Positions 40,626 to 63,712 of a DNA stretch of 64,000 bases are shown here, one piece after another. The DNA is from Candidatus Binatia bacterium (lineage in GTDB: Bacteria; Desulfobacterota; Binatia; Bin18), in contig OY761159.2 of assembly GCA_963664395.2 (NCBI GenBank), positions 736,001 through 800,000 on the forward strand. The letters are read 5' to 3'. A program made the position numbers and the translations under genes. The first letter of the stretch is position 1; each line of letters starts with the position of its first letter. The notes beneath the pieces were generated by a model. That model had not been told where the DNA came from. It saw only the letters and a program-made list of their open reading frames with translations, and ran no database searches.

Positions 40626-41483
40626 CTACTCCACGTCCGTGATGACAAAATTCTGTTTATTCTGTTGCCACTCCAGTGTGACCGTCTCGCCCAGCATGGG
40701 GAAGTCCTCGACCACACATTCCCCCTCAGCGTCCAGCACAAACTCCTGTCCCAGCGTCGTCACCCGTACCGTGGCCCGGCCTAACTCTTCGCCATCCACG
40801 AACGCCACCACCTCATGTTCCCCCTCGCCCAACAGGTTCCAGTTGAACAACAGCCCAAAGCCGTTGGCCGTGTCCCCACACGCACCTTGGGTATCCAGCC
40901 GCTCGGTGCCATACGCCGCCACCTGTCGCCCGGCGGTCCCAATCGCAAGCTCGACCGTGTCGGCGTCACACACCCAGCCCGACAGCACCCCGATGCCGCT
41001 CTGAAACGAGTTCGGCCCCGGGTTTTCCAGATAGCCCTCGCCGGGGGTGCCCATCCGGTTGGTGGGGCCGGCAGGAGCCGGACCGTCCACAATCACAAAG
41101 CTCTGTTGTGTCTGTTGCCACACCAGCGTGACCGTCTCGTCCATGGTCGGGAAATCCGCGGCGGTACACGTGCCCGTCACGTCGCGCAGAAACTCCGTCC
41201 CCAACGTCGTGACCATCACGGTCGCCCGGTCGAGTTCGACTCCATCGACCAGGGCCACCACCTCATGCTCCCCGTCGCTCAACAGATTCCAGTTGAACAG
41301 CAACCCAAAGCCGTTGTCCGTGTCGCCGCATACGCTGGCTGTGTCCAGCCGCTCCGTCCCATACGCCGCCTCCTGCGGCATCCCGTTCAACTCAATCTCC
41401 ACCACCTCCGCCTCACACACCCAGCCCGAGAGAATGCCCACACCACTTTGAAACGAATCAGCGCCGGGGTTCTCCAGATAGCC
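40626..41483 (-). repeat. Two tandem ~135-aa C-terminal domains within the giant protein
   Basis: Both copies read GYLENPG..SFQSG.G.LSGWVC.A..AAYGTERLDT...CGDT.NGFGLLFNWNLL..GEHEVVA.VDG..DFP...ETVTL.WQQ..Q.FVI (~41084-41483 and 40626-41036). Confidence 0.9.
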
Positions 41484-48308: not shown

Positions 48309-48961
48309 CACTGCTGGTGGTCCATCTCGGTATGGGGCTCCTCAACCCCACAGTTAAGCGGCGGCTCTTCCACCTCGCTGATGGCATACAGGCCGTCACC
48401 CACGGAGCGAATGTGATACACCTCTCCCAACGTCCGCACCGTGCCGGCCACGGCCTCCCCGTTGACCACCAGCGTCATCGTGCCGAGCGGCTCTTCGACC
48501 AGATGGCCCGCCACGGAATAGCCGCCTGAAAACGTCGGCGCGGTCTGTTCGACAATGCCCGTGACCACGACGTCGTCGAACAGATTAAAGGTCAGGGTCG
48601 TGCCCGGCGGGGGGGCCGTACTGGACTTGTCCCGGCGGGCGGACACATCTCTGGTGTGAACGCGCTGGCCGGGGGACTCCACCGCCGCCCGCGCCTGCTG
48701 GACTTGCCCCAGGTCCATGGCCACCACCCGGCTACGCAGCGTCAGCTCGGCGGCGGGGAGGGATGCCGGGGGCGGTTCAGCGACCGGCGTAAAGAGGTCG
48801 GCGGCCTGCGCGCTGCCCGACAGGCCGACCACGATCAGTAGCCAGAGCGTGACGGTGGGGCGCCACCGGGGGGCGGCGGCCCAGTGGGCTCCCAGAATGT
48901 CATCAATCCTATACATTGCTTCCCTCGCCGCCTGGGACCATACACCATTGCGTCGCGTCAT
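48308..48961 (-). CDS. Stand-alone secreted reprolysin pro-domain with a cysteine-switch motif
   Basis: RBS ggagg, signal peptide ending SAQA|A, beta-rich body (L.FNLFDD, G.V.T....Y.I) and C-terminal PLNCGV. Stop overlaps the protease start (TGATG). Alternative start at 48916. Confidence 0.75.
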   Translation of the reverse strand: MTRRNGVWSQAAREAMYRIDDILGAHWAAAPRWRPTVTLWLLIVVGLSGSAQAADLFTPVAEPPPASLPAAELTLRSRVVAMDLGQVQQARAAVESPGQRVHTRDVSARRDKSSTAPPPGTTLTFNLFDDVVVTGIVEQTAPTFSGGYSVAGHLVEEPLGTMTLVVNGEAVAGTVRTLGEVYHIRSVGDGLYAISEVEEPPLNCGVEEPHTEMDHQQ

Positions 48962-49191: not shown

Positions 49192-51117
49192 ATGGCGACC
49201 GCCAGCCGCATTGATGCCATCCCCCTGCCACCGCTGGAGGTCTCTTTCGACCCCATCACTTTCAGTGTGATCCGCAACCGTTTTGAAGCCATCGGTCAGG
49301 AGATGACCCTGGCGATGGAGCAGACGGCCTGGACCTCGGTCATCGCCCTGGCGCGCGACTACTCGTGCATGATCTACGACGCCCATTCGAGCGGTCCGCG
49401 GCAGGTCACCATGGCCGATTGCCTGCCCATCCACTGCAACAGCATTCGGACCCTGCTGATGGAAATCGTCGCCGTATTCAAAGACGAAATCCACGACGGC
49501 GACGTGTATATGTCGAACGATCCCTATCGGGGCAACACCCACATCCCGGACCTGGTAACGGCCCAGCCGGTCTTCGTTGACGGCGAGCAGGTGTTCTGGA
49601 CGGTGGCGCGCGGCCATCAGCTCGATACCGGTGCCATCGAAGCGTCGAGCATCGTGCCTGCGGCAAAGACCATCTTCCAGGAAGGCATCGTCATTCCGCC
49701 GACCAAGCTGATCGACCGCGGCGTCGAACGCCACGATATCGTCGAGCTGTATCTCTCCAATGTACGCTACCGGGACGCGCTGCACGGAGACCTGCGCGCC
49801 CAACTCGGCGCCTGCGGCGTGGCCCGCAAGGGCCTGATCGAACTGTGCCAGCAGTACGGTCGCGATGAGGTGATGCGCTATAGCGACGGTCTCATGGACT
49901 ACGCCGACCAGCGCGCGACAGAGGAGTTTCTGAAAATTCCCGACGGCGTCTACCACGGCGAGACCTGGACGGACACCGACGGCAACGGCGCCACGGACAT
50001 TCCGATTCGAGCCACGATCACCAAGAAGGGCGCGGATATCCACGTGCACTACAGCGGCGGGCCGCCGTCCACCGGCTCGTTCAACGGGACCTATGCGGTC
50101 ATGATGGCGACCTCGACCATCCCCTTCCTGTACTACATTGATTCGGACATTCCGCATAACCACGGCGTGCTACAACACATCAGCGCCGACGCCGACGACA
50201 ACACCATCTGCCTGGCCAAGTGGCCGGCTGCGGTTGCAGGCGCAACCCAGAATCCGGCCGACCCCATGCACGACGTCATCAATATCGCCATGGCCGAAGC
50301 CATTCCCGATCGTGTTCCTGCCGGCGGGGCGCATACCGCCCACATCCCGAACTTCAACGGGGTCGATTCGAGAACCGGCAAGGAGTGGGGCTGCATGCTG
50401 TTCAACAGCGGCGGCGGCCAGGGCGCGGCAAAGGACGCCGATGGCTGGCCGGTCCTGTGTACCATTGCCGGCATGGGCGGGCTCACCTCGGCCTCGGTCG
50501 AGCAGTTGGAGCTGCTGTATCCGCTCCGCGTCGATCAGAATGAAATCGAGACCGACGCCCTGGGCATGGGGAAATGGATCGGCGGCCCCGGACTGCGCAC
50601 CTGCTATCGCCCGATCGCCGGAGATATGGAATGCGTCGGCTTTGGCGAGGGCTTGAAGAACCCGCCGCACGGGGTGAACGGCGGCACCATGAGCCCAGGC
50701 GGCGGCATTTATATCGAGCACGCGGACGGCCGGCGGACCTTTACCTCTTCCGCGGGACAGCTTCTGATTCGCGAAGGCGAGACCTGGAATGGCGTGTCCG
50801 CGGGCGGCGGCGGCTGGGGCAATCCGCTCGACCGCGACCCGGAACAAGTGCGCCGCGACCTGCGGGACGAGTGGATCAGCGCTGACGCCGCCCGCAATGT
50901 GTTCGGCATAGTCGTCAAGGACGATCTTGAGCGCAGCCTCGACGTTGCCGCAACCGAGCAACTCCGAGCCGAACTGCGCAAGACCGAGCGCCCGATGATC
51001 GAACCGACCATCCCCGCCGCGGGGACCTGGACCAAGGAGAACATGCGCCCCGGCGACCGCTATCTCGAAGCCCCGACTATCGCCCGGAACTTCAGCGACA
51101 TGCCGAAGGAGGCGTAA
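49192..51117 (+). CDS. Hydantoinase B/5-oxoprolinase-family subunit
   Basis: DPITF.VI, SNDPY.GNTH.PD, GHQLD.G, EQLE..YP, G...GGPG and GGGGWGNP motifs. Confidence 0.9.
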   Translation: MATASRIDAIPLPPLEVSFDPITFSVIRNRFEAIGQEMTLAMEQTAWTSVIALARDYSCMIYDAHSSGPRQVTMADCLPIHCNSIRTLLMEIVAVFKDEIHDGDVYMSNDPYRGNTHIPDLVTAQPVFVDGEQVFWTVARGHQLDTGAIEASSIVPAAKTIFQEGIVIPPTKLIDRGVERHDIVELYLSNVRYRDALHGDLRAQLGACGVARKGLIELCQQYGRDEVMRYSDGLMDYADQRATEEFLKIPDGVYHGETWTDTDGNGATDIPIRATITKKGADIHVHYSGGPPSTGSFNGTYAVMMATSTIPFLYYIDSDIPHNHGVLQHISADADDNTICLAKWPAAVAGATQNPADPMHDVINIAMAEAIPDRVPAGGAHTAHIPNFNGVDSRTGKEWGCMLFNSGGGQGAAKDADGWPVLCTIAGMGGLTSASVEQLELLYPLRVDQNEIETDALGMGKWIGGPGLRTCYRPIAGDMECVGFGEGLKNPPHGVNGGTMSPGGGIYIEHADGRRTFTSSAGQLLIREGETWNGVSAGGGGWGNPLDRDPEQVRRDLRDEWISADAARNVFGIVVKDDLERSLDVAATEQLRAELRKTERPMIEPTIPAAGTWTKENMRPGDRYLEAPTIARNFSDMPKEA

Positions 51118-51119
51118 AC

Positions 51120-53186
51120 ATGGGGCATCGAGTCGGCATCGATATCGGCGGCACCTTCACAGATGTAGTCCTGCTGCGCGACGACGGGACATTCCATGTC
51201 TATAAAGAAGACTCGACTCCCGACCAGCCGCTGCTGGCAATTACGCGGGGGCTCAGCGGGCTGGCCGAGGAAGCCGGGACCACGGTCGCAGAGCTTTTGC
51301 GCGAGACGGAATTTCTGGTCCATGGCCAGACCATGGCAACCAATGCGCTGATCCAGCGCAACGGTCCGGTCATCGGACTGCTGTGCACCCAGGGCTTTCG
51401 CGACATCATGTATCTGGGCCGCGGCGGCAAGCCCGAGCGGTTCAACATCCATCTCCAGAAGCCCGAGGACTTTATTCCCCGCTATTTGCGCCTGGGCATT
51501 CCCGAACGCATCAGCGCGGACGGCTCCGAAATCCTGCCGCTCGACGAAGAGGCCATTCGCAACGCGGCCCGGCGCTTCGGTGCCCACGGCGTCAAAGCGG
51601 TTGCCGTTGCGTACTTGTGGTCCATCGTCGATTCGAGCCACGAAAAGCGCACCGCCGAGATCGTGCGCGAGGAGCTGCCCGGCGTCGATGTGCTGTGCTC
51701 CTGTGATGTCCTGCCCGAGATTCGGGAATGGGAGCGCACCTCGGCAACCGTACTGTCGGCCTATATCGCGCCCATCATCGGCGACTATCTGCGCGCCTTT
51801 GAAAAAGAGATGGCAGCCGGCGGCCTGCCCCACCCGCCGCAGATCATGCAGGTCAACGGCGGCTGTGCCTCGGTTGAGGACCTTTTGGCGCGGCCTGTCA
51901 ACGCGGTGGCCTCGGGTCCCGCGGCTGGCCCGGCGGCGGGTGCGCACTACGCCTCGGATACCAAAGCCCCCGACCGGCTGATCATTATCGACATGGGCGG
52001 AACCAGCTTCGACGTTTGCATGCTGCGCGACAGCGAACCGGTCATGTCAACCGATATTCGGGTCGCACATCAGCCCATCGGGGTGAACGGGGTCGAGGTG
52101 CTGTCGATCGGCGCCGGCGGCGGCTCCATTGCCTGGCTCGACAGCGGCAAGGCGCTGCGGGTCGGGCCGCAGAGCGCGGGTTCCCAGCCGGGGCCGGCCT
52201 GTTACGGCCGGGGTGGTCGTGCGCCCGCAGTCACCGACGCCAACCTGGCCGTCGGGCGAATGTCGTCCGGGGCGTTTCTGGGCGGGCGGCGTTCTCTCAG
52301 CGAGCACCTGGCGCAGCGAGCCATTGCCGAGCATATTGCCACGCCGCTGGGGCTGTCGGTCCGCGAGGCCGCGGCCGGTATCCTGACCATTGTGAACTCG
52401 AATATGGCCTCGGCCATCCGGGCGGTCTCGATTGAGCGCGGCATCGATCCCCGCGACTATGTCATGGTCGCGGGCGGTGGGGCCGGTGGCCTGCACGCGG
52501 CCGAGCTGGCCCGTATGCTTGAGATCGGCGAGGTGCTGATTCCGCGTTCCGCGGGCGGCCTGTGCGCGTTCGGCATGGCGGTCACCCCGGTGCGGCACGA
52601 CTACGTGCGCCTGCACCACTGCTATACAAATCGGCCGGACGCGGCCACGAGCATCGCTCAGGTGTTTGACGAGCTGATCGCCCAGGGTGGCTCCCATCTT
52701 AAGGAGGAGGGCTTCAAGCCCGAGGAGATTCGTTTTGCCCGGCATCTTGAAGGACGCTATCCGGGTCAGGTGCACAACCTGACTGTGCCGCTGCCCGAAG
52801 GACCGATTGACGCCGATCTCTTGCGGCGACTCGAAGCCGACTTTCATGACGAGCACGAGCGGCGCTTTACCTATTCGATGCGCGACCAGCCCATCGAGTG
52901 CCTGCACTGGCGCATCGCCGCCACGGGCAACCGACCTGCTCCTGAAGGACGGCTGGCCACGCAGTCCGGGGGTGGGTCAAAATCCACCAGCCGGCGCAGG
53001 GCCTATATGGCCGGGGTCAATGCCGAGGTGGAAACCGAGATTTATCAGGGCGACGCGCTGGCGGCGGGTGACCGGCTGACCGGCCCGGCCATCGTTGAGT
53101 TCGCCACAACCACGGTGGTCGTCAATCCGGATGACCGACTGACCGTCCAGGCCGACGGCAGCTCTCTGCTGACGATTGCCCTCTAA
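51120..53186 (+). CDS. Hydantoinase A/5-oxoprolinase-family ATP-binding subunit
   Basis: GIDIGGTFTD, HG.T.ATNA, SGPAAG, DMGGTSFD, IGAGGGS and GGAGGLH motifs. Confidence 0.92.
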   Translation: MGHRVGIDIGGTFTDVVLLRDDGTFHVYKEDSTPDQPLLAITRGLSGLAEEAGTTVAELLRETEFLVHGQTMATNALIQRNGPVIGLLCTQGFRDIMYLGRGGKPERFNIHLQKPEDFIPRYLRLGIPERISADGSEILPLDEEAIRNAARRFGAHGVKAVAVAYLWSIVDSSHEKRTAEIVREELPGVDVLCSCDVLPEIREWERTSATVLSAYIAPIIGDYLRAFEKEMAAGGLPHPPQIMQVNGGCASVEDLLARPVNAVASGPAAGPAAGAHYASDTKAPDRLIIIDMGGTSFDVCMLRDSEPVMSTDIRVAHQPIGVNGVEVLSIGAGGGSIAWLDSGKALRVGPQSAGSQPGPACYGRGGRAPAVTDANLAVGRMSSGAFLGGRRSLSEHLAQRAIAEHIATPLGLSVREAAAGILTIVNSNMASAIRAVSIERGIDPRDYVMVAGGGAGGLHAAELARMLEIGEVLIPRSAGGLCAFGMAVTPVRHDYVRLHHCYTNRPDAATSIAQVFDELIAQGGSHLKEEGFKPEEIRFARHLEGRYPGQVHNLTVPLPEGPIDADLLRRLEADFHDEHERRFTYSMRDQPIECLHWRIAATGNRPAPEGRLATQSGGGSKSTSRRRAYMAGVNAEVETEIYQGDALAAGDRLTGPAIVEFATTTVVVNPDDRLTVQADGSSLLTIAL

Positions 53187-53216
53187 CAATTTTTCTCTAA
53201 CAAAAGGAGAGCCTGC

Positions 53217-53963
53217 ATGTCGGGTGTCATGATCGTGACGGGAGGCAGTCGCGGCATTGGAGCCGCTATTGCACGCCGGGCGGCGCGGGCCGGGTTTGAC
53301 GTGTGCGTCAATTATGCGCGCGCCAAAGACCGGGCCGAAGAGGTGGTCCACGACGTGATACAGGCCGGGCAACGGGCTATTGCCGTGCAGGCCGACGCGG
53401 GAACGGAAGCCGGTGTCGTTGAGCTGTTTCGCCGAACCGATGCCGAGCTCGGCCCGGTCACCGCCCTGGTGAATAATGCCGCGATCGATTATGAGACCGC
53501 GGTCGTCGACGCCGAGTTGGAGCGCGTCCGGGGCGTTTTTGATCTCAATATCTTTGGCGTGTTCGTGAGCGCCCGCGAGGCCATCAAGCGCATGTCCACC
53601 AAACGCGGTGGCACCGGCGGCGTGATCGTCAACGTCGGCTCCGTTTCCTCGCGCTACGGCGGGCTGCCCGGCGACGTGGTCTACGCCTCAAGCAAGGGCG
53701 CGCTTGATTCCTTTACCCTGGGCCTGTCCAGAGAAGTCGGGCCTGAGGGGATTCGGGTCTGTTGCGTGCGGCCTGGGATTACCCGGACGGAAATTTTTGA
53801 GGCGAGTATCGGCATTGAACGCGCCGAAGCCATCGCCAAGGCACAGACGGTCCTGGGACGCATCTGCGAACCCGAAGAGGTGGCTAATCTGGTGGTCTGG
53901 ATCTGCACGGATGAGGCCTCGTACGTCACCACGACGATCTACGATATTTCGGGCGGACGCTGA
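53217..53963 (+). CDS. SDR-family oxidoreductase
   Basis: TGGSRGIG, NNAA and YASSK motifs. Confidence 0.9.
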   Translation: MSGVMIVTGGSRGIGAAIARRAARAGFDVCVNYARAKDRAEEVVHDVIQAGQRAIAVQADAGTEAGVVELFRRTDAELGPVTALVNNAAIDYETAVVDAELERVRGVFDLNIFGVFVSAREAIKRMSTKRGGTGGVIVNVGSVSSRYGGLPGDVVYASSKGALDSFTLGLSREVGPEGIRVCCVRPGITRTEIFEASIGIERAEAIAKAQTVLGRICEPEEVANLVVWICTDEASYVTTTIYDISGGR

Positions 53964-53994
53964 ACAGGTCACGTTAATATAAGGAGAAACCAGC

Positions 53995-55944
53995 ATGACC
54001 AGCGCCATACAGGACATACAGGCAGACCACGCGCAGACCCTCCCGACGCATCCCCTGGAGCCGCTGAGCCGGAGCGAGATTGAGCGCGGCGTGGCCATCC
54101 TCAGCGGCTCGGGCGAGCTGAGCGGCCAGCTCGCCTTCTCCAGCGTCAGTCTGGTCGAGCCGCCCAAAGATGAGGTCAAGACCTTTACCCCAGGCGCGCC
54201 GTTTACTCGGGTGCTGCGCTTTCTGGGGGTGGACGAATCTGCCAACGGGAGGCAGGCGGGCAGTTTTGACGCACGGGTCAATATCACGACCGGAGAGCTG
54301 CTTGAGGTGCAGCGCCTTAGCGGCGGACAGGCCCCATTTGGGGGGCGAGACTTGGTGCAATCGATCAAGCTCACCAAAGCCGACCCGGCCTGGCAGGCCG
54401 CGGTCAGACGGCGCGGCGTCGAGGATATGGGCCGGGTGCAAATCGATATGTGGCCGGGCAGCGGTCCCCTGCCCGACGGCGTGGACGCCACCCACCGTCT
54501 GGCCCGGACGATTGCTTTTGTGCGCGAAGACAAGACCGACAACGGCTATGCCCGCCCGCTCCAGGGTCTGATTGCCCATGTGGATTTGACCGAAGGACGG
54601 GTGGCTCATCTGGAAGATCATGGCGTGACAGCCATACCGCCGGAGAGCGGACGCTACGAGGCCACTCATCAGCCTGCGCTGCGGACCGATTTGAAACCGA
54701 TTGCCATTACCCAGCCCGAGGGGCCGAGTTTCCGCGTCGATGGGCACGCGGTGGAATGGCAGAAGTGGTCGTTCCGGGTCGGCATGCACCCCCAGCACGG
54801 CCTGGTCCTGCATACCCTGAGTTATGACGATGCCGGGCAGCGGCGGTCGATCCTGTATCGCGCCTCGCTGGCGGACATGGTGGTGCCCTATGGCGACCGC
54901 GACCCCATGCACACCTGGAAACACGTGCTGGATGCCAGCGAGGCGAGTGTGGGCAATCTGGCCAATTCGCTCAGCCTGGGCTGCGATTGTCTGGGCGAAA
55001 TCCATTATTTTGATATGCCCACACTGCTGGCCGACGGGTCCGTCTATACAATCGAAAACGCCATCTGCATGCATGAAGAAGATTACGGCGTGCTGTGGAA
55101 GCATCGCGACCTGCTGTCCGCGACCACGGAAGTCCGGCGCTCGCGGCGTTTGGTGGTCAGCTCGTTCTTTACGGTCGGGAATTATGAGTATGGCTTCTTC
55201 TGGTATTTATACCTGGACGGCACGATTCAGATGGAGGTCAAGCTGACCGGCATCGTCGGCGTCAGCGCGGTTGAAACCGGGGCCGAGCAGCCCGAGTTCG
55301 CTCCGCTCATTGCGCCCAACCTGGCCTCCCCGATTCACCAGCATCTGTTCTGTTTCCGGCTCGATTTCGATGTGGACGGTGAGAACAACTCGGTCTACGA
55401 GGTCGAGGTCGAACCCGTGCCGCACGGGCCGGACAATCCGCACGGGACGCAGTTCCGGGCCAAGACCACGCTCTTAGCATCCGAGGATGTCGCCCGGCGG
55501 AACATTAACCCGCAGGCCGGCCGGAGCTGGAAGATCGTCAACCCACAGCGGACCAACCGGCTGGGGGTGCCGGTCGGCTATAAGCTGCTTGCCGGCGCAA
55601 CACCGACCCTGTTTGCCCAGGCGGACTCCTATGTGGGGCAACGGGCCGGGTTTGGCCAGCATAATCTATGGGTCACCGCGTTTACGCCGGACGAACTCAG
55701 CGCGGCTGGCGACATCACGCTCCAGAGTCCCGGCGGAGAGGGCCTGCTACGCTATTCACGCGGACGCGATATCGAGAACACCGACATCGTTGTCTGGCAT
55801 ACCTTTGGCCTCACGCATATTCCGCGGCCTGAAGATTGGCCGGTGATGCCGGTCGAGTATGCCGGCTTCAGCCTGATGCCGGTCGGCTTTTTTGAACGCA
55901 ACCCCGCCCTGGACGTGCCGCCCAGTCCGCACGCGTGCAAATAA
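53995..55944 (+). CDS. tynA: Copper/TPQ primary-amine oxidase (cytoplasmic, AGAO-like)
   Basis: HPL.PLS..EI, catalytic Asp in VLDASE, TPQ motif TVGNYEY, and Cu ligands HQH and TH.PRPEDWPVMP. Confidence 0.9.
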   Translation: MTSAIQDIQADHAQTLPTHPLEPLSRSEIERGVAILSGSGELSGQLAFSSVSLVEPPKDEVKTFTPGAPFTRVLRFLGVDESANGRQAGSFDARVNITTGELLEVQRLSGGQAPFGGRDLVQSIKLTKADPAWQAAVRRRGVEDMGRVQIDMWPGSGPLPDGVDATHRLARTIAFVREDKTDNGYARPLQGLIAHVDLTEGRVAHLEDHGVTAIPPESGRYEATHQPALRTDLKPIAITQPEGPSFRVDGHAVEWQKWSFRVGMHPQHGLVLHTLSYDDAGQRRSILYRASLADMVVPYGDRDPMHTWKHVLDASEASVGNLANSLSLGCDCLGEIHYFDMPTLLADGSVYTIENAICMHEEDYGVLWKHRDLLSATTEVRRSRRLVVSSFFTVGNYEYGFFWYLYLDGTIQMEVKLTGIVGVSAVETGAEQPEFAPLIAPNLASPIHQHLFCFRLDFDVDGENNSVYEVEVEPVPHGPDNPHGTQFRAKTTLLASEDVARRNINPQAGRSWKIVNPQRTNRLGVPVGYKLLAGATPTLFAQADSYVGQRAGFGQHNLWVTAFTPDELSAAGDITLQSPGGEGLLRYSRGRDIENTDIVVWHTFGLTHIPRPEDWPVMPVEYAGFSLMPVGFFERNPALDVPPSPHACK

Positions 55945-56096
55945 GAGGGAGCAGAAAACTATCCCCTCTTGGGAGGGAATTATATACAATTTTACCCGCC
56001 GCAAGGGGGCGGCCCCTATCTTCTCCCCGCTCGCACCTCTTCAAGCGCAACCAGGATTTGGCGCGTTACCAGTTCTTCCATAGGGAGGAGAATAAA

Positions 56097-56122
56097 AAAG
56101 CCCGGCTGATTGACCGGGCTTT
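56097..56122 (-). terminator. Rho-independent terminator for the cassette passenger genes
   Basis: aaagcccgg-N8-ccgggcttt with a T run on the minus strand, just after the 55-aa ORF. Confidence 0.7.
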
Positions 56123-56151
56123 AGACAGGGACGGATTATCGGACTACTTGA

Positions 56152-56319
56152 TTAAATTAGGCCCTTCTTATGCATCTCTTTTACTAAGCTGACCATTTCT
56201 TCAGCAGAATCTGCCGCCTCCTCCAGTCCTTTTCTCATGTTAGTCGTTTCATTCTTGAGGTCTTCAAAACTCTTGTCTGTTTCCAATTCAAGTGAGGAAA
56301 TTTCCCTTATTGTGCTCAT
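56152..56319 (-). CDS. 55-aa helical hypothetical protein (cassette passenger)
   Basis: MSTIREISSLELETDKSF...KKGLI; RBS aggagg; ATGA overlap with the upstream ORF. Confidence 0.55.
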   Translation of the reverse strand: MSTIREISSLELETDKSFEDLKNETTNMRKGLEEAADSAEEMVSLVKEMHKKGLI

Positions 56320-56620
56320 ATAGGACCTCCTGCCTGATTGACGTATCCTTTCAATAGTCCCGTAACCTCTCCGAGGGCATTATTCATTCTAAGAATGTTG
56401 TCATTGGCCTTTCTAAGGTCATCTCGGACTTCATCAATCCGCTCGTTCAGTCTCTTCTCGATAGCTTCTATCCGTTCTTTTTGTTGTTTCTCAGTGGCTT
56501 CATTCGCTTGGTGCATTTCACGCCGATAGTTAGCCATAATTCTCCAAAACAACCCGCCCCCGGAATTAGTAATGCAATGATAGGAATCGCCCAGTCTGCG
56601 AGAAGATCACCACCTGTCAT
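56316..56620 (-). pseudogene. Small membrane-anchored coiled-coil protein with a frameshift near 56560
   Basis: MTGGDLLADWAIPIIALLI continues in another frame as GLFWRIMANYRRE...coiled coil, across a ccggggcggg run. Confidence 0.5.
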
Positions 56621-57201
56621 GTTTTTACTTCTTCATACCGCCACTGCTTCTTAGGTGGTCCCATCATAGCAGCGCGGGCTATATTCTCCGGTGTGTCCAG
56701 GATAGGATCAGGCATGGGTCGGGCAGGACGCCCACCCACATTAGACGCAGGGGGTACGCTTGTGTGGCTCCTTTTTTTGAGTTTTCATTTTACACCTCCA
56801 AAAATAGCTGTAGCTATTTCTAGCATCGACATTAGCGCAAGCTGTTGGGAATTACAATTCCTGCTGAAGGAAGTGGGAAAGCCGGGAAAATTGGAAGAAT
56901 GGCAAGCGGAGACGTATGGGTGCGCATCTCCGTAGAGTGGGTAAAATTGTATATAATTCCCTCAGCGGCGGGGTGGGTTGTCCCCCGCCTGGCGGCCACC
57001 GCGCGTCTGGCGAGCGCGGGTTCCTGGGAATGTGCATCACACGTCCCAGGAGGGGAAGCGGAGAGCGCCTGGCGTACCGCTTCTGGCTCTCGGTCGATAA
57101 CGACCAGATGACGTTTTGCCTCCTCTTTATAAGCCGAAGCAATTTCCGCCGAGATGGCTCGCAGTTCATTCCGTTCGTCCTCGTCCGTCACACTCCTATG
57201 C

Positions 57202-57230
57202 TTGACAGACGATTTGTGGTCTTTCAAGCT
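57202..57230 (+). promoter_or_regulatory. Possible sigma70 promoter for the Mo-hydroxylase/sox operon
   Basis: TTGACA-17bp-CAAGCT upstream of the RBS aaggag. Confidence 0.35.
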
Positions 57231-57268
57231 ATGCGGGAAAGCGTGTTTCCGAGGAAAAAGGAGACGGC

Positions 57269-57742
57269 ATGATTGCACTGACCGTGAACGGAACGGAACA
57301 CCGCGTAGATGTCAGCTCAGACATGCGGCTGCTGTGGGTTTTACGTGACATCCTGGGGCTGACCGGGACGAAATTCGGCTGCGGCATGTCCTTGTGTGGG
57401 GCCTGCACCGTCCATCTGGATGGCGAACCGGTACGCTCGTGCGTTATGCCGGTCTCCATTGCCGCGGGCAAGAAAATTACGACTATAGAAGGGCTCTCCC
57501 CAGACGGCAGCCACCCTTTACAGCAGGCCTGGGTTGCTCATCAAGTGCCGCAGTGCGGGTATTGTCAGACAGGTATGATTATGTCGGCCGCCGCGCTGCT
57601 GAAAAAAAAGCCACACCCAACCGATGCCGACATCAACGAAGCCGTGACGAATATTTGCCGGTGTGGGACGTATACGCGTATTCGGGCCGCCATTCATACG
57701 GCCGCCAAAAAATCCGGCTCGAACGACGGGATGAAGGGATAA
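57269..57742 (+). CDS. 2Fe-2S small subunit of an isoquinoline 1-oxidoreductase-like Mo-hydroxylase
   Basis: GTKFGCG..LCGACTV, QCGYCQ and NICRCGTY motifs. Confidence 0.92.
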
Positions 57743-57752
57743 GGACACGCCG

Positions 57753-59933
57753 ATGAAACAGACAGCGAATATATCCCGTCGTTCGTTTTTGTTGCGCTCG
57801 GCTGCGGTCGGGGGCGGACTGATGTTGGAGGTGACGCTCCCGAAGTCTCGTGTGGCCGCGGCGGAACAGGCGAGTCCCGCGGACACCAGCCCTGAGGTGA
57901 CCGCCTGGGTCCTGATTCGGCCGGATGACACCATCGTCATCCGCGTTGCGCGGGTGGAAATGGGCCAAGGCAGTTTTACCGGTCTGCCCATGCTGGTTGC
58001 CGAAGAACTAGGCTGTGACTGGAGCAAAGTGCAGGCCGAGTATGCTTCAACGAGCGAACACCTGAGGCGCAATCGTATTTTTCGCACCATGCTCACCGGC
58101 GGCAGCCGGTCGATCCGTGACAGCCAGGAGTACTTACGCACGGCAGGGGCCGCGGCCCGCCTGATGCTCACCACCGCGGCCGCGCGGCGCTGGGGCGTGC
58201 CGGTCGCGGAATGTGTCGCTGCAAACAGCCTCATCACCCATACCCCAACCGAGCGACAGCTCAGCTTTGGAGCGGTAGCGGCTGAGGCGGCCGCGCTCGA
58301 CATCCCCGAAAATCCGCCGCTCAAAGACCCCGCGGACTGGACCATTTTGGGCCAACCGGCCGCCCGGTTTGACATCCCGGATAAGGTGACGGGCAAGACC
58401 GCCTTTGCCATTGATACCCGGCTGCCCGGCATGGTCTATGCCGCGATTGCCCAGTGCCCGGTGTTCGGCGGCAGCCTGAAAAGCGTAGACGCAAAAAAAA
58501 TTGCCGACATGCGTGGGGTGGTCAAGGTTGTGCGCCTGGAAGACGCGGTCGTCGTCGTTGCCAAAGAAAGCTGGTGGAACGCGCAGCAGGCTGTCCGCGC
58601 ATTACCGATTGAGTGGGATTTTGGGGAGCACGCGAACGTCAGCAGCGACAGCATCATGGAGTTTTTACGTGAGGGCATACAACTCGAAAAGGCGCCGGTC
58701 TCGCGCCATGAGGGCGATATCGACAGCGCGTTTGCCGGCGCGGCCACAACCATTGAAGCCGACTATTACGCCCCCTATCTTGAGCACGCCACCATGGAAC
58801 CCCAGAACTGCACGGCGCTGTATACGGAGCAGCGGGTGGATGTCTGGGCACCGGCCCAGAACAGCGAGGCCACCGCGGCCGTGACCGCTGAGACCGCGGA
58901 CGTGCCGGTGAGTCGGGTCGAGGTCCACAAAGTCCATCTGGGGGGGGGCTTTGGGCGGCGTGGGCTGTATATTGAGTTTGTGCGCCAGGCTGTCAGGATT
59001 GCCAAGACTATGCCCGGCACGCCGGTGCAATTGATCTGGTCCAGAGAAGAGGATATTCAGCACGGCCGCTATCGGCCGGTGGCTTTGGTCCGCATGAGAG
59101 CCGCGCTCAACGCCTCCGGGGAACCAACCGCCTGGTCCGTGCGCCAGGCCGAGCAGTCGATTTTCAGTGCAGTCCGCCCCCATCTGATTCGGGACGGGGT
59201 TGATATCGTCGGGGTGCGGACCTTTGTCGACGCGCCGTACGCCTTTCCAAACATGCATATGGAATACGCCATGCGCAACACCCACGTGCCGCCAGGGCCG
59301 TGGCGGGCGGTGGCGCATACTCATAATCCGTTCTTTCGGGAGAGCTTCATTGACGAGTTGGCCCACGCTGCCGGGCAGGACCCGTATCAGTTTCGACGCA
59401 CACTCTTGCAGGAACCCCAGGCGTCGAAGGACCTGGCCATTCTGGACGCGGTCGCCGAGGCTGCCGGATGGGATAGCCCGCTGCCGGAAGGCGTCCACCG
59501 TGGGATTGCCGTACAGGACGCCTACGGGAGCTATACTGCGGCGGTGATTGAAGCGTCAGTTAATGGTGAAGGTGAGTTGACTATCCAGCGCGTGGTTGTT
59601 GGTATTGATTGCGGCTATGTAGCCAACCCCGATTCGGTCCGGGCTCAGCTCGAAGGCAGCGTCGTCTACGGTCTGACCGCCGCGTTGTACGGGGAGATCA
59701 CCATTAAGGCGGGCCGGGTTGAACAGTCGAATTTCCATGACTACCAGATGATGCGGCTGGCCGAGATGCCCACGGTTGAGGTTGTCCTCAGGCCGACAGG
59801 CGGTTTTTGGGGCGGCGCGGGTGAGCCCGGCATGGCCCCGCTTGCGCCGGCGCTGTGTAATGCCATCTTTGCAGCAACCGGCAAACGTATTCGTTCGTTG
59901 CCGTTAAAGAACCATGATTTACGCCCGGCCTAA
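57753..59933 (+). CDS. Tat-exported molybdopterin large subunit (IorB-like)
   Basis: SRRSFL Tat motif; EMGQG..TGL, TGGSRS, H..MEP.NC, LGGGFGRR and GGAGEPG motifs. Confidence 0.92.
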   Translation: MKQTANISRRSFLLRSAAVGGGLMLEVTLPKSRVAAAEQASPADTSPEVTAWVLIRPDDTIVIRVARVEMGQGSFTGLPMLVAEELGCDWSKVQAEYASTSEHLRRNRIFRTMLTGGSRSIRDSQEYLRTAGAAARLMLTTAAARRWGVPVAECVAANSLITHTPTERQLSFGAVAAEAAALDIPENPPLKDPADWTILGQPAARFDIPDKVTGKTAFAIDTRLPGMVYAAIAQCPVFGGSLKSVDAKKIADMRGVVKVVRLEDAVVVVAKESWWNAQQAVRALPIEWDFGEHANVSSDSIMEFLREGIQLEKAPVSRHEGDIDSAFAGAATTIEADYYAPYLEHATMEPQNCTALYTEQRVDVWAPAQNSEATAAVTAETADVPVSRVEVHKVHLGGGFGRRGLYIEFVRQAVRIAKTMPGTPVQLIWSREEDIQHGRYRPVALVRMRAALNASGEPTAWSVRQAEQSIFSAVRPHLIRDGVDIVGVRTFVDAPYAFPNMHMEYAMRNTHVPPGPWRAVAHTHNPFFRESFIDELAHAAGQDPYQFRRTLLQEPQASKDLAILDAVAEAAGWDSPLPEGVHRGIAVQDAYGSYTAAVIEASVNGEGELTIQRVVVGIDCGYVANPDSVRAQLEGSVVYGLTAALYGEITIKAGRVEQSNFHDYQMMRLAEMPTVEVVLRPTGGFWGGAGEPGMAPLAPALCNAIFAATGKRIRSLPLKNHDLRPA

Positions 59934-60405
59934 TCGCCTGTCACGGCGGCGACTGCTCGTCGGCCTGCTCAGCTGCCTGGGCGGCCTGGGCTCTATGGTT
60001 GCGCCGCTCAGGAAGGCGCGCCCGGCAGACGCACTTCCCGAGAAACTCGCGCCGCTCATTCGCCAGGCAACCGGAGGGGTCATGCCCCAGGTCGGCCGTG
60101 TCACGCTCACGCTGCCAACCCTGGCCGAGAGCGGCAATTCCGTGCGGCTTCAGGTCCGGGTCGAGAGCCCGATGACGCCGGAAGCCCATGTAAAGCAGAT
60201 TCATATTTTTTCAGAAAAGAACCCCAGACCAGTTATTGCCCGCTTCTCGCTGGGGCCGCGCGCCGGACGGGCCGAAATACACACCCGGATTCGACTGGCC
60301 GGCACCCAGCAGGTTGTGGCGGTTGCGGTCATGAACGACGGTACGGCCTGGATGGCGAGCGCGGAAGTCGTTGTCACGGCCGCAGCCTGTGTTGAGGGAA
60401 GCTGA
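59914..60405 (+). CDS. SoxY-related sulfur carrier with an AAC(I/V)E arm
   Basis: SRRRLL Tat motif; P.LAESGNSV, KNP.P and TRIRLA..Q.V.AVA motifs. C-terminus is TAAACVEGS rather than GGCGG. Confidence 0.85.
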   Translation: MIYARPNRLSRRRLLVGLLSCLGGLGSMVAPLRKARPADALPEKLAPLIRQATGGVMPQVGRVTLTLPTLAESGNSVRLQVRVESPMTPEAHVKQIHIFSEKNPRPVIARFSLGPRAGRAEIHTRIRLAGTQQVVAVAVMNDGTAWMASAEVVVTAAACVEGS

Positions 60406-60421
60406 CGCGACTGGAATCGGG

Positions 60422-60745
60422 ATGGCCAAAGCGAGAATCAAAGTCCCTGAGGTTGTCACACGCGGAGCGGTCTTTGAGGTGCGTTTGCTCATCCGTCATC
60501 CCATGGAAACCGGCTTCCGGTATAACAACGTGGGACAGAAGATTCCCAAAAACATCGTGCATACCGTTCGGTGTGTGTATAACGGGGCGGAGGTTTTCCA
60601 TGCGGAGTTATTTCCCGGTATTGCTGCCAACCCGTATTTTTCGTTTTTCACCACAGCGGAAGTGTCGAGTGAGTTGGAGTGTGTGTGGACAGACGACACT
60701 GGGGTCACGACATCCGAGCGCGTCGCGCTCACGGTCAGCGAATGA
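60422..60745 (+). CDS. soxZ: Thiosulfate-oxidation carrier complex protein SoxZ
   Basis: LIRHPMETGFR, GIAANPY..F and W.DD.G motifs. Confidence 0.88.
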   Translation: MAKARIKVPEVVTRGAVFEVRLLIRHPMETGFRYNNVGQKIPKNIVHTVRCVYNGAEVFHAELFPGIAANPYFSFFTTAEVSSELECVWTDDTGVTTSERVALTVSE

Positions 60746-61047
60746 AACGTTTTGTTGTTCTGCTTGCCAGCCTGCTGGCGGTCCCGGCCCTCGCGAGCGC
60801 GGCCCCCATCACGGCAGGCGGCCCGGCATTGGCCCAGGCGTGTGCGGCCTGTCATGGTCCCGGCGGGCGTAGTCAGGGAGCAATTCCGTCACTCGATAGG
60901 CTGCCACCTGAGGATTTCAGGGCAGCCATGCAGGCGTTTCGGACCGAAGAACGTCGGGGGACTGTGATGAATTATATTGCCAGGGGGCTGAGTGAGGCGA
61001 GTATTGAGGCAGTGGCGGCGTATTTCGCAGGGGCGCAGGCACGTTGA
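60742..61047 (+). CDS. Monoheme c-type cytochrome (FccA/SoxE-like)
   Basis: Signal peptide, CAACH, IPSL and TVMN.IA.G motifs; ATGA overlap with soxZ. Confidence 0.85.
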   Translation: MKRFVVLLASLLAVPALASAAPITAGGPALAQACAACHGPGGRSQGAIPSLDRLPPEDFRAAMQAFRTEERRGTVMNYIARGLSEASIEAVAAYFAGAQAR

Positions 61048-61074
61048 AATGGGGACTTGTGTTCATATCCTTTT

Positions 61075-61172
61075 CCCCCTCGCCCCCTTGGGGGAGAGGG
61101 CTAGGGTGAGGGGGAATCTTCGTATCGAACAACGCCCCTCACCCCGCCCCTCTCCCTAGCCTGGGAGAGGGA
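61075..61172. repeat. Inverted REP doublet (CCCTC..GGGAGAGGG.TAGGGTGAGGG family)
   Basis: cccctcgcccccttgggggagagggctagggtgagggg plus an inverted partner cccctcaccccgcccctctccctagcctgggagaggga. Confidence 0.8.
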
Positions 61173-61182
61173 GCAAAAATAT

Positions 61183-62460
61183 ATGTCTCGGTATGTAACC
61201 CGCCGTCAATTCTTCAGCTTGGCCGGGAGTCTCTCTTTTGCCAGTGTGCTGACGCGCCGGGTGCGAGCGAATACACGCGCCAGGGTAGTCGTCGTTGGCG
61301 GTGGTTTTGGCGGGGCGACCTGCGCAAAGTATTTACGCCTGGCCGACCCCAGCCTTGAGGTCACGCTGGTGACACCGCAGCGTCAGTTTATCACCTGTCC
61401 ATTCAGCAACGCGGCCCTGGTCGGGCTTCGTCCGCTCACCTCGTTGACCCATACCTACCAACGGCTCCGGGAAGGCTATGGCGTGCAGATTATCCAGGCG
61501 CAGGCAGACCAACTCGATCCGACCACGCAGAGGATCACACTCAGTGATGGGTGTACTTTGGCCTATGACAAACTTGTTTTATCCCCTGGTGTTGAACTGC
61601 GCTGGGACGCGATAGCGGGCTACGATGCTGAAGCCTGTGCAGTGTTCCCGCACGCCTGGCAGGCCGGTTCACAAACGCGGCTGCTACGTCGCCAACTGGA
61701 ATCTATGGAAGACGGCGGGCTGGTGGTGATCAGCGCGCCGGAGACGCCCTACCGCTGTCCGCCGGGGCCGTACGAGCGGGCCAGTTTGATCGCCCACTAT
61801 CTCAAAACCCATAAGCCAAAATCAAAAGTCTTGCTGCTCGATGCCAAGGACAGCTTTACCAAGGACAAGCTGTTTCTAGCCGCGTGGGAGCGGCTGTATC
61901 CCGGCCTGCTCGAATGGGTGTCGGGCGCGCAGGGCGGGCGGGTCACCCAGGTCGATACACGGACCGGCATCGTTCGCACGGAGTTTGACGAGTATAAACC
62001 AGCCGTGGCCAATATCATTGCCCCACAGCGCGCGGCGGCGATTGCGCGGGCGGGCGGCATCGATGCCGGCACGGGCTGGTGCCCCGTATACGGCGGCACA
62101 TTCGAATCCCGCGTACACCCCAACATTCACATTATTGGCGACGCAGCGATCGCCAGCCCCATGCCCAAATCCGCCTTTAGCGCCAATAATCAGGCCAAGG
62201 TCTGCGCCGCGGCCATTGTGGCACTGCTCCGGGGCGAGCCGGTTGCACAGCCAGCGTTGATGAATACCTGTTACAGTCTGGTCGCGCCCGATTACGGCAT
62301 CTCTATTAGTGCTGTGTATTCCGTTGAAAACGACGCGATTCAGGTTGTTCCAGGGTCGAGCGGCACGAGCCCGCTTGACGCGCCGGAGACAACGCGCGCG
62401 CTCGAAGCAGCCTATGCGCGCTCGTGGTACGCCAATATTACCGCCGATACGTTTGGGTAA
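61183..62460 (+). CDS. fccB: Flavocytochrome c sulfide dehydrogenase flavoprotein (FccB/SoxF)
   Basis: TRRQFF Tat motif; VVVVGGGFGGAT.A, CPFSN, HAW.AG, YRCPPGPYERA, MPKSAFSAN.QAK and NTCYS motifs. Confidence 0.9.
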   Translation: MSRYVTRRQFFSLAGSLSFASVLTRRVRANTRARVVVVGGGFGGATCAKYLRLADPSLEVTLVTPQRQFITCPFSNAALVGLRPLTSLTHTYQRLREGYGVQIIQAQADQLDPTTQRITLSDGCTLAYDKLVLSPGVELRWDAIAGYDAEACAVFPHAWQAGSQTRLLRRQLESMEDGGLVVISAPETPYRCPPGPYERASLIAHYLKTHKPKSKVLLLDAKDSFTKDKLFLAAWERLYPGLLEWVSGAQGGRVTQVDTRTGIVRTEFDEYKPAVANIIAPQRAAAIARAGGIDAGTGWCPVYGGTFESRVHPNIHIIGDAAIASPMPKSAFSANNQAKVCAAAIVALLRGEPVAQPALMNTCYSLVAPDYGISISAVYSVENDAIQVVPGSSGTSPLDAPETTRALEAAYARSWYANITADTFG

Positions 62461-62473
62461 AGGCGACGCTACG

Positions 62474-63712
62474 ATGCACGGAAGCTATTGGAAAGCTCTT
62501 GTCATTCAGGTGTGGGTCGGACTTCTGGTGCTGAGCGATCTCTGCGCCCAGGGGAATCAGCAACTCGACGATTCGCAGACCCGGCATGAAGGGATTCCCA
62601 CCCCGTTGACCGACCAGCCCGGTGATGCGGAGCGGGGGCGGCATATTGTGCTCGACCGGGAGCGCGGCGATTGTGTGGTATGTCATGCCCTGCCACTGCC
62701 CGAACGTCGGTTCCACGGTACGGTGGGGCTGCCCTTGGACAACGTTGGGAGTCGCTATACCGCCGCGGAGTTGCGCCTGCGGCTGCTAGACCCCAAAGCG
62801 CCAAATCCCCACTCCATCATGCCGGCGTATCATACGGTGGAAGGTCGGCATTCCGTACTCGAAGCCTACCGGGGCAAGCCGATCCTCACCGCGCAGGAAA
62901 TCGAAGATGTTGTGGCTTATCTCTTGACCCTTCGTCAGGACGCTCCACAGGCTGCACAGGCTCTCCAAACTCCGAGCAGTTCGCAGCACGAGACTTCCCC
63001 ATACAGCGTCGAAGGCCGTCGCTCCGGCTATACCTATCTGTCGGAGGAACACAGACAGTTACAGGACGACGTGTTTGGCAATCCGGGGATGTTATGGGTC
63101 GAACGCGGTCGCGCGTTATGGGACCAGCCCCAGGGCGACCGCCAACAGGCCTGCGCCAGTTGTCATGGAGACGCGGCAACCAGCCTGCGCGGGGTGCGTA
63201 CCCGCTATCCGCAATTCGATCCACGCACAAAAAAACTCATCAATCTGGAGCAACGGATTAACCACTGCCGCACCGAGCAGCTCCGGGTCGAAGCCTACCC
63301 GTATGAATCCGAAGCCCTGTTGGCGCTCAGCACCTTTGTAAGTTTTCAGTCACGCGGGATGCCGCTTAGCGTAGATATCAAGGGACCGGCCGCACCGTTT
63401 TTCGAGGCGGGCAAAGCGTTCTTCATGCGCCGCCGCGGCCAACTCGACATGGCGTGTAGCCATTGCCATGATGAGTACGCCGGGCAACGCCTGCGGGGTG
63501 AGGTCGTCAGCCAGGGACAGACCAACGGTTTCCCTGTCTATCGGCTGAGCTGGCAAACGCTGGGATCAACGCACCGCATGTTTGCCCGGTGCAACACCGC
63601 AATCCGTGCCCAACCCCTGGCCTACGGGGCGGACGACTACGTGAATCTGGAATTGTATATGGCCTGGCGTGGTCGTGGCTTGCCGGTAGAAACACCGGGC
63701 GTGCGCCGGTAA
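62474..63712 (+). CDS. Single-chain SoxX-SoxA fusion cytochrome (three CxxCH motifs)
   Basis: SoxX part: GD.ERG, CVVCH, G.VG.PL..VGSR, SIMPAY. Q/S-rich linker. SoxA part: NPGMLWV..G, CASCH, LEQRIN.C, CSHCH, FPVYRL.W...C, LE.Y..WR..GL.VE.PGVR. Confidence 0.85.
   Translation: MHGSYWKALVIQVWVGLLVLSDLCAQGNQQLDDSQTRHEGIPTPLTDQPGDAERGRHIVLDRERGDCVVCHALPLPERRFHGTVGLPLDNVGSRYTAAELRLRLLDPKAPNPHSIMPAYHTVEGRHSVLEAYRGKPILTAQEIEDVVAYLLTLRQDAPQAAQALQTPSSSQHETSPYSVEGRRSGYTYLSEEHRQLQDDVFGNPGMLWVERGRALWDQPQGDRQQACASCHGDAATSLRGVRTRYPQFDPRTKKLINLEQRINHCRTEQLRVEAYPYESEALLALSTFVSFQSRGMPLSVDIKGPAAPFFEAGKAFFMRRRGQLDMACSHCHDEYAGQRLRGEVVSQGQTNGFPVYRLSWQTLGSTHRMFARCNTAIRAQPLAYGADDYVNLELYMAWRGRGLPVETPGVRR

Follow-up and report, generated by a model that had tools for sequence, protein, structure and literature searches.

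A seven-gene cluster joins a molybdenum enzyme to a Sox-type system

The window analysed here, a 64,000-nucleotide stretch from a Candidatus Binatia bacterium (GenBank assembly GCA_963664395.2, contig OY761159.2, positions 736,001 to 800,000), contains seven contiguous genes on one strand, from iorA to soxXA, which encode a two-subunit molybdenum (Mo) enzyme belonging to the xanthine oxidase family together with a Sox-type set of sulfur proteins (Table 1). A sequence-only reading of the window had described this arrangement, with soxY overlapping the iorB stop and a cytochrome c gene coupled through ATGA, and both parts were borne out: the open reading frames and their Pfam and NCBIfam identities agree with the gene assignments, and the intergenic distances from iorA to soxXA (+10, -20, +16, -4, +135 and +13 nt) place the soxY start 20 nt inside iorB and couple soxZ to the cytochrome c gene by a 4-nt overlap. 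Gene order is identical in 14/14 related loci and all seven genes are under purifying selection, with a median ratio of nonsynonymous to synonymous substitution rates (dN/dS) of 0.07-0.21 per gene among 13 relatives (0.074 for iorA); because of this kept order and these low ratios, the cluster is not a product of chance. The host genome holds a single copy of all five Sox/Fcc genes. The module is real and conserved, and its Sox-type system is the only one of the host cell.

Table 1. Genes of the cluster and other features of the window, numbered from the first nucleotide of the window
Feature	Position	Strand	Length (amino acids)	Characteristics
iorA-like	57269..57742	+	157	Pfam Fer2 and Fer2_2; 2x[2Fe-2S] small subunit
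iorB-like	57753..59933	+	726	Mo subunit of the xanthine oxidase family; Pfam MoCoBD_1/2; twin-arginine signal
soxY paralogue	59914..60405	+	163	Twin-arginine signal; carrier arm AAAC-VEGS
soxZ	60422..60745	+	107	PF08770; TIGR04490 79.8 bits (cut-off 76)
Monoheme cytochrome c (FccA-like)	60742..61047	+	101	Pfam Cytochrom_C; hydrophobic N-terminus; CAACH
fccB (FccB/SoxF-type sulfide dehydrogenase flavoprotein)	61183..62460	+	425	Twin-arginine signal; Pfam FCSD_central and FCSD-flav_bind
soxX-soxA fusion	62474..63712	+	412	Three CxxCH; TIGR04484 230.9 bits and TIGR04485 73 bits, both above cut-off
REP-like palindromic repeat	61070-61175			Between the cytochrome c gene and fccB
Upstream genes	49192-55944	+		Hydantoinase/oxoprolinase B and A, SDR, copper amine oxidase
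Insertion	55945-57268			~1.3 kb
Inverted repeat	55954-55997 / 56939-56982			44 nt
Open reading frame in the insertion	56316-56552	-	78
Large protein gene	40626-48311	-	2,561	Zinc-metallopeptidase-like N-terminus and adhesin-type repeats, by eye

IorB carries a twin-arginine motif (SRRSFL, read directly in the sequence) and groups with the IorB/AldH-type enzymes of the xanthine oxidase family by its molybdenum cofactor-binding motifs, its catalytic glutamate and its 2x[2Fe-2S] partner: EMGQG (69), TGGS (115), GGGFGRR (397) and the catalytic-type GEPG (690) are all intact. No signal peptide was seen in IorA, which is likely co-exported with IorB. In an NCBIfam profile search IorB reached no equivalog, and its nearest solved structure is an aldehyde dehydrogenase (8GY3_C, E 1.6e-69 by sequence and template modelling (TM) score 0.77 by fold), a relationship from which oxidation at the aldehyde level by IorAB is predicted. 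This membrane-bound enzyme of Gluconobacter oxydans (PDB 8GY3), through its large subunit, was the top sequence and fold match over the whole IorB length, signal region included, but IorB is only 26% identical to it in the structural alignment, the substrate loops differ and, unlike Binatia IorB, it has no Sox partners. The cytochrome subunit of the Gluconobacter enzyme is without a counterpart in the Binatia cluster.

SoxY also has a twin-arginine motif (SRRRLL), and its arm, read directly, ends in AAACVEGS. The arm had been noted as AAACVE instead of GGCGG, and the profiles agree: the protein scored 108.4 bits with the GGCGG-arm model TIGR04488 (cut-off 125), and the best of three SoxY models was TIGR04487, at 168.5 bits just below its cut-off of 172. 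The SoxYs of two close relatives (G347 and G512) pass the TIGR04487 cut-off, the host SoxY lies in one clade with passing members, and AAACVE matches the spectrum of AAC-hydrophobic-acidic arms of that family; its placement in the module SoxY clade has a support of 96 in the Shimodaira-Hasegawa-like approximate likelihood ratio test (SH-aLRT). In a related strain (locus L001, 8001-8483), soxY contains an in-frame TAG with the other cluster genes intact, which is either a recent pseudogene or an assembly error.

FccB (twin-arginine motif TRRQFF, read directly) scores over the cut-offs of PF21706 and PF09242 and keeps, in the alignment, all three cysteine motifs characteristic of flavocytochrome c sulfide dehydrogenases (FCSD): FITCPF, YRCPPG and NTCYS. 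The roles of these cysteines are presumably those described in the FCSD literature.

The host has no SoxB or SoxC

The absence of soxB and soxCD from the cluster, which the sequence-only reading had pointed out, extends to the whole host genome (95.9% complete), in which the suggested search for these genes in trans was run. This profile search of the whole genome returned 0 matches to SoxB and no SoxC, the sulfite-oxidase-family matches being two short open reading frames and one protein that, in our reading of its sequence, is MsrP-like. Among 55 genomes of the host's Binatia family, SoxB was over its cut-off in 0/55 and SoxC in 2/55. Neither a methanethiol oxidase nor a YeeE transporter was found in the host genome. 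A full-length member of this family, at ~200 bits, occurs in many close relatives, so that one short sulfite-oxidase-family fragment of the host (G000:C1:550103-550228, minus strand) may be what is left of a sulfite dehydrogenase after decay.

Binatia SoxA has lost its thiosulfate-binding arginine

soxX and soxA are fused into one open reading frame in 23/23 Binatia loci, versus 0/28 of the other module loci that hold both parts; a fused SoxX-SoxA is also found in the canonical locus L016. The predicted fold of SoxXA matches SoxA and SoxX (model predicted local distance difference test, pLDDT, 65), and this fold, a TIGR04484 score above the cut-off of 110 and a cysteine-ligated catalytic heme place the protein in the SoxA family. 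In an alignment with 1H31, 2C1D and 3OA8, Cys373 of SoxXA aligns to C222 of 1H31, so that the catalytic heme-ligating cysteine is kept, as it is in 66/66 module SoxA copies. Four positions before it (Cys-4), Met369 sits where the thiosulfate-binding arginine is expected (R218 of R. sulfidophilum SoxA, R119 of TsdA). The residue at Cys-4 is Met or Ile in 24/24 Binatia SoxA copies, and the arginine is retained in 6/6 canonical loci and in 3/3 SoxA structures of the PDB. PMC4423706 reports that this arginine is invariant across TsdA and SoxA, that thiosulfate is bound by it in the structure of TsdA and that the R119A exchange in TsdA raised the Michaelis constant (Km) 21- to 77-fold (0.22 to 17 mM in one case, 2.2 to 47 mM in the other). 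Judging from these alignments, Binatia SoxA has been remodelled, with the catalytic cysteine kept and the thiosulfate-binding arginine lost.

Codon 372 of SoxXA (window position 63587) encodes Arg in the host and Trp in 22 relatives, and both alleles occur within one sequencing run; Arg372 is a real allele. A glutamate at Cys-14 was considered as a signature of module SoxAs and set aside as weak, since the canonical loci L129 and L126 have Glu and Ala at this position. A quick tree groups Binatia SoxA with canonical type I SoxA (SH support 94, with a long-branch root) and gave no resolved single clade of the module SoxAs.

The variant SoxY is tied to IorB, and not the reverse

Other genomes were surveyed, as had been suggested, for linkage between iorAB and the Sox genes of the module, and this linkage proved to be kept well beyond the Binatia lineage. 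The sequence-only reading had named two outcomes that would count against it, missing linkage and a SoxB elsewhere in the genome; both were checked and neither was seen. The variant SoxY is present in 42/55 genomes of the host's family and the same IorB in 42/42 of these, with both adjacent on one contig in 41/42 and split across contigs in the last (G350). Among the 13 family genomes without the variant SoxY, the IorB is also missing from 11, one carries a distant IorB and one, whose assembly is 84% complete, carries a fragment; both proteins are missing from five near-complete family genomes. Elsewhere in the class Binatia, a single genome, from the same order, was seen to carry the module. 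Differently arranged, the same gene set occurs on Neorhizobium, Methylobacterium and Roseomonas plasmids; orthology to the alphaproteobacterial clusters of the same content is shown by the trees of IorB and SoxY. A metagenome scan with the SoxY arm motif confirmed 569 matches, of which the best 80 were kept, most of them on short contigs and many from close kin. Within these best 80, iorB was present in 21/21 loci with at least 3 kb of upstream sequence, the cytochrome c, which is optional in other lineages, was detected in 3/21 of them, and soxB or soxC in 0/80.

A quick tree of 55 IorBs united the Binatia clade and a second clade, which includes the alphaproteobacterial plasmid copies, in one group (SH-aLRT 100). 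Five Sox-less IorBs (two from Sinorhizobium and one each from Rhizobium, Agrobacterium and Methylosinus) nest inside this Sox-linked group at three places, so that Sox-linked IorBs do not form an exclusive clade in this tree. The nested copies match their Sox-linked neighbours in the active-site motifs, and His511, a candidate contact residue of IorB that is invariant in 19 Sox-linked copies, is Pro in 4/5 of them. The four annotated Sox-less iorB loci all adjoin a c-type cytochrome gene and two also adjoin xdhC. No AACxE SoxY was found on the plasmids of the five Sox-less carriers, the replicons that this search covered. The variant SoxY was thus never seen without IorB, and IorBs of the same clade do occur without Sox genes, showing that the dependence is one-way, of the variant SoxY on IorB. 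Therefore, the Mo enzyme likely acts on a free substrate and the variant Sox set likely serves IorAB.

Two loci met during this survey have other arrangements. On a Methylosinus plasmid (L025, 2251-10763), genes for an arylsulfatase and a multiheme cytochrome precede a Sox-less IorB of the same clade and xdhC lies opposite, again a sulfur-related context for this clade. At L125 (9548-14832, genome G291), SoxYZ with the arm VSGCGD stands with a YeeE/YedE-like gene, a divergent fccB and a diheme cytochrome c, directly followed by a signal-less Mo subunit of the XdhA type, which may be a case where SoxYZ/Fcc paired independently with a member of the xanthine oxidase family.

Relation to known systems

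With the canonical Sox system of Paracoccus pantotrophus and Rhodovulum sulfidophilum, the Binatia module shares the SoxXA fold, hemes and catalytic cysteine, the arm cysteine of SoxYZ and a SoxF-type flavoprotein; it differs in having no SoxB/SoxCD, an AAACVE instead of a GGCGG arm and Met in place of R218, and in its association with a Mo enzyme from a different family. No functional study of the module was found in full-text literature searches, which did not extend to subscription journals or supplements. Bradyrhizobium bll2737-bll2732 may be a copy of the module under RegR control. The main text of PMC4064962 is silent on it, and in PMC1698941 the pair bll2737-bll2736 appears just once, among the predicted targets of Irr.

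The gene content itself has been known since 2013, when Kappler and Nouwens reported that Starkeya novella has a second sox cluster, soxX2Y2Z2A2F2 (Snov_1982-1977), without SoxB/SoxCD and of unknown role; it shares an operon with a two-subunit xanthine-oxidase-family Mo enzyme (Snov_1975/1976), and thiosulfate, glucose and methanol all gave very little expression (PMC3797975). Going by that published description, the two clusters are alike in content (SoxX, SoxY, SoxZ, SoxA, a SoxF-like protein and the Mo enzyme), but in Binatia the genes stand in another order, soxX is fused to soxA and the SoxA arginine is lost; moreover, Starkeya novella also has a complete Sox system, whereas this module is the only one in the Binatia host. 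New here are the distribution in the Binatia family (42/55, with IorB in 42/42 and SoxB in 0/55), the one-way dependence and the arginine loss in SoxA, and the Binatia form is new in being a sole Sox-type system with a fused SoxXA and loss of an otherwise invariant arginine.

Stand-alone SoxYZ plus FccAB clusters, found in Sinorhizobium meliloti (pSymA), Phyllobacterium, other Binatia families and SAR324 (for the latter, see PMC4782131), share four of the seven genes and likewise have no SoxB, but they also have no SoxXA or IorAB and their arms are TNGC, VGGCG or SGC. A precedent for recruitment of SoxYZ folds to loci of carbon-oxidising dehydrogenases is the quinoprotein-dehydrogenase-associated SoxYZ-like carrier (TIGR04557; PMC11237559), which is a fused SoxYZ accompanying a pyrroloquinoline quinone (PQQ) enzyme and with which Binatia SoxY scores only 61 bits (cut-off 140). 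The same survey of SoxY proteins proposes organosulfur or one-carbon (C1) roles for divergent arms, and its main text is without the terms 'xanthine' or 'molybd' (PMC11237559).

A proposed role in organosulfur oxidation and its alternatives

We tentatively favour, with somewhat less than even confidence, a reading in which the seven genes would encode an exported periplasmic unit that oxidises an organosulfur compound, its carbon by IorAB (at the level of an aldehyde or of a heteroaromatic C-H) and its sulfur by SoxYZ, SoxXA and FccB, with electrons delivered to c-type hemes and the steps taken in either order. This proposal is based on the one-way dependence, on the lost oxyanion site, on the silence of the Starkeya cluster on thiosulfate, which it would explain, and on retention of the Sox sulfur chemistry, since the cysteines of SoxA, SoxY and FccB are all kept. 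SoxXA would join a neutral thiol or HS-/polysulfide, rather than thiosulfate, to the SoxY persulfide, which is the active carrier of canonical systems (PMC5336275). Cleavage of the C-S bond, the weakest step and one for which no catalyst was identified, would then give an aldehyde and sulfide; IorAB, whose [2Fe-2S] centres would hand the electrons on to SoxX or cytochrome c, would oxidise the aldehyde to the acid, and FccB would oxidise the sulfide to SoxY-bound sulfane, with polysulfide or elemental sulfur (S0) as the end product. The reverse order, in which Mo hydroxylation would come first and sulfur release second, would fit about equally well and is included in the same estimate. A substrate other than thiosulfate, already suggested by the sequence-only reading, fits the arginine loss in SoxA and the lack of SoxB in trans, and the low expression in Starkeya novella is what one would expect if the unit waits for a substrate of its own.

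Several points weigh against this organosulfur proposal. Flanking genes, sought as clues to the substrate, gave none: across the 28 loci examined, the cluster has no conserved hydrolase, lyase, transporter or regulator at its side, which leaves C-S cleavage without a gene. Loss of the Cys-4 arginine is confined to Binatia, with Arg kept in 43/43 other module SoxAs; a second arginine lies at Cys-5 in 65/66 module SoxAs and the host SoxXA carries Arg372, either of which might compensate, the Cys-5 arginine being one that would face differently on the predicted helix, in a low-confidence region of the model. Glu at Cys-14 of the non-Binatia module SoxAs is weak evidence, as the canonical SoxA of L129 shares it. 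Because several active-site loops differ between Binatia and alphaproteobacterial IorBs, one substrate for all IorBs is not assured. Finally, the Sox-less IorB carriers were searched on plasmids only, and 2/5 of these plasmids hold another SoxY type.

Rather unlikely, in our judgement, is that the Mo enzyme replaces SoxCD/SoxB, with FccB and SoxXA loading sulfane from sulfide on SoxY, IorAB oxidising the arm-bound sulfur and sulfite or thiosulfate as the product, which would make the module a self-contained system of inorganic sulfide oxidation. The six core genes are indeed self-contained, with no conserved flanking gene, an exported Mo enzyme stands in place of the exported Mo enzyme SoxC at loci without soxB or soxC (0/80 of the best 80 of 569), and the AAC-x-acidic arm was seen only alongside IorAB and SoxXA, nine SoxYZ plus Fcc loci without these having other arms (L020, L109, L125, L131 and L144-L148). 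However, clade-nested IorBs persist without Sox genes and with unchanged motifs, loss of the oxyanion arginine from Binatia SoxA would also impair thiosulfate release, and enzymes of the xanthine oxidase family hydroxylate carbon. We likewise have limited faith in direct action of the Mo enzyme on cargo of the SoxY arm, be it sulfane or an organic thiol in tethered form, which would be loaded by a SoxXA with a pocket rebuilt for a non-thiosulfate substrate; if true, this would be a periplasmic sulfur pathway not described before, with new chemistry for the SoxA and Mo-hydroxylase families, in sponge-associated Binatia and in many other bacteria.

IorAB and the Sox proteins could also be independent neighbours that share regulation and an electron outlet, IorAB being an ordinary periplasmic aldehyde dehydrogenase and SoxYZ, SoxXA and FccB detoxifying sulfide to polysulfide. 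SoxYZ with cytochrome c and FccB does recur alone (also in SAR324; PMC4782131), IorB can stand alone, co-loss is explicable by physical linkage alone, and a copper amine oxidase gene, as an aldehyde source, ends 13-33 nt before iorA in 9/15 close relatives. We nonetheless consider this improbable: the linkage outlasts several gene orders, in which the gene after iorB is soxY, soxX, that for cytochrome c or fccB, the variant SoxY is never seen without IorB, and the amine oxidase is not upstream in the other genera examined.

The earlier suggestion of Mo=S supply or repair in the periplasm, taken here in a form where the Sox parts would pass sulfur from the SoxY persulfide to desulfo IorB and thereby provide or renew its terminal ligand, has been weakened and now seems distinctly improbable. 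It would fit the one-way dependence, and 2/4 annotated Sox-less relatives have xdhC and a nucleotidyltransferase gene beside iorB instead, with no conserved xdhC flank at the 28 Sox-linked loci examined. Against it, a full XdhC is encoded elsewhere in the host genome, close, nested IorB relatives manage without Sox genes, two separate sulfur oxidases seem excessive for repair, and PaoABC and AldFGH, both periplasmic, are not known to require such a system.

Ordinary thiosulfate oxidation with SoxB/SoxCD encoded elsewhere can hardly be right, even though SoxA, SoxX and SoxZ pass the cut-offs of canonical NCBIfam families and the quick SoxA tree, with its long-branch root, gives the canonical type I grouping, since SoxB and SoxC are over cut-off in 0/55 and 2/55 family genomes, SoxY fails the GGCGG model, the thiosulfate-binding arginine is lost from Binatia SoxA and the Starkeya novella copy is described as not induced by thiosulfate (PMC3797975).

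Genomes with soxXAYZ are routinely scored as thiosulfate oxidisers, and such calls can be wrong for the whole Binatia family and for many other bacteria. From its genes, the module appears to be a widespread, conserved periplasmic redox unit, of which the Binatia form is the cleanest test case, being the only Sox-type system of its host, with a single-gene SoxXA and a natural substitution of an 'invariant' arginine that makes the question of other SoxA/SoxY cargo directly testable.

Transcription signals and surroundings of the cluster

Contigs from an RNA library span most of the cluster, and one mismatch-free 416-nt contig crosses the iorB-soxY junction; the same run covers the upstream non-coding insertion at similar depth, so DNA carry-over is possible. 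Near-identical pieces are present in a run labelled as a sponge metagenome. A promoter scan gave 6 promoter-like sites versus 2.7 +/- 1.8 by chance, none of them immediately 5' of iorA, and terminators were at chance level. The repetitive extragenic palindromic (REP)-like repeat has 17 BLAST matches in the genome.

Upstream on the same strand lie genes for hydantoinase/oxoprolinase subunits, a short-chain dehydrogenase/reductase (SDR) and the copper amine oxidase. Apart from the 9/15 close relatives mentioned above, the amine oxidase gene is parted from iorA by insertions in four more and in the window, and it is absent from this position in 2/15 close relatives and in the other genera examined. 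This enzyme is a possible aldehyde source, but it was rejected as a core part of the module, being confined to the closest relatives. In the window, the insertion that separates it from iorA is skipped by contigs of related strains, is partly bounded by an inverted repeat and contains a short open reading frame on the opposite strand. Still further upstream, also on the opposite strand, lies the gene for the large protein listed in Table 1.

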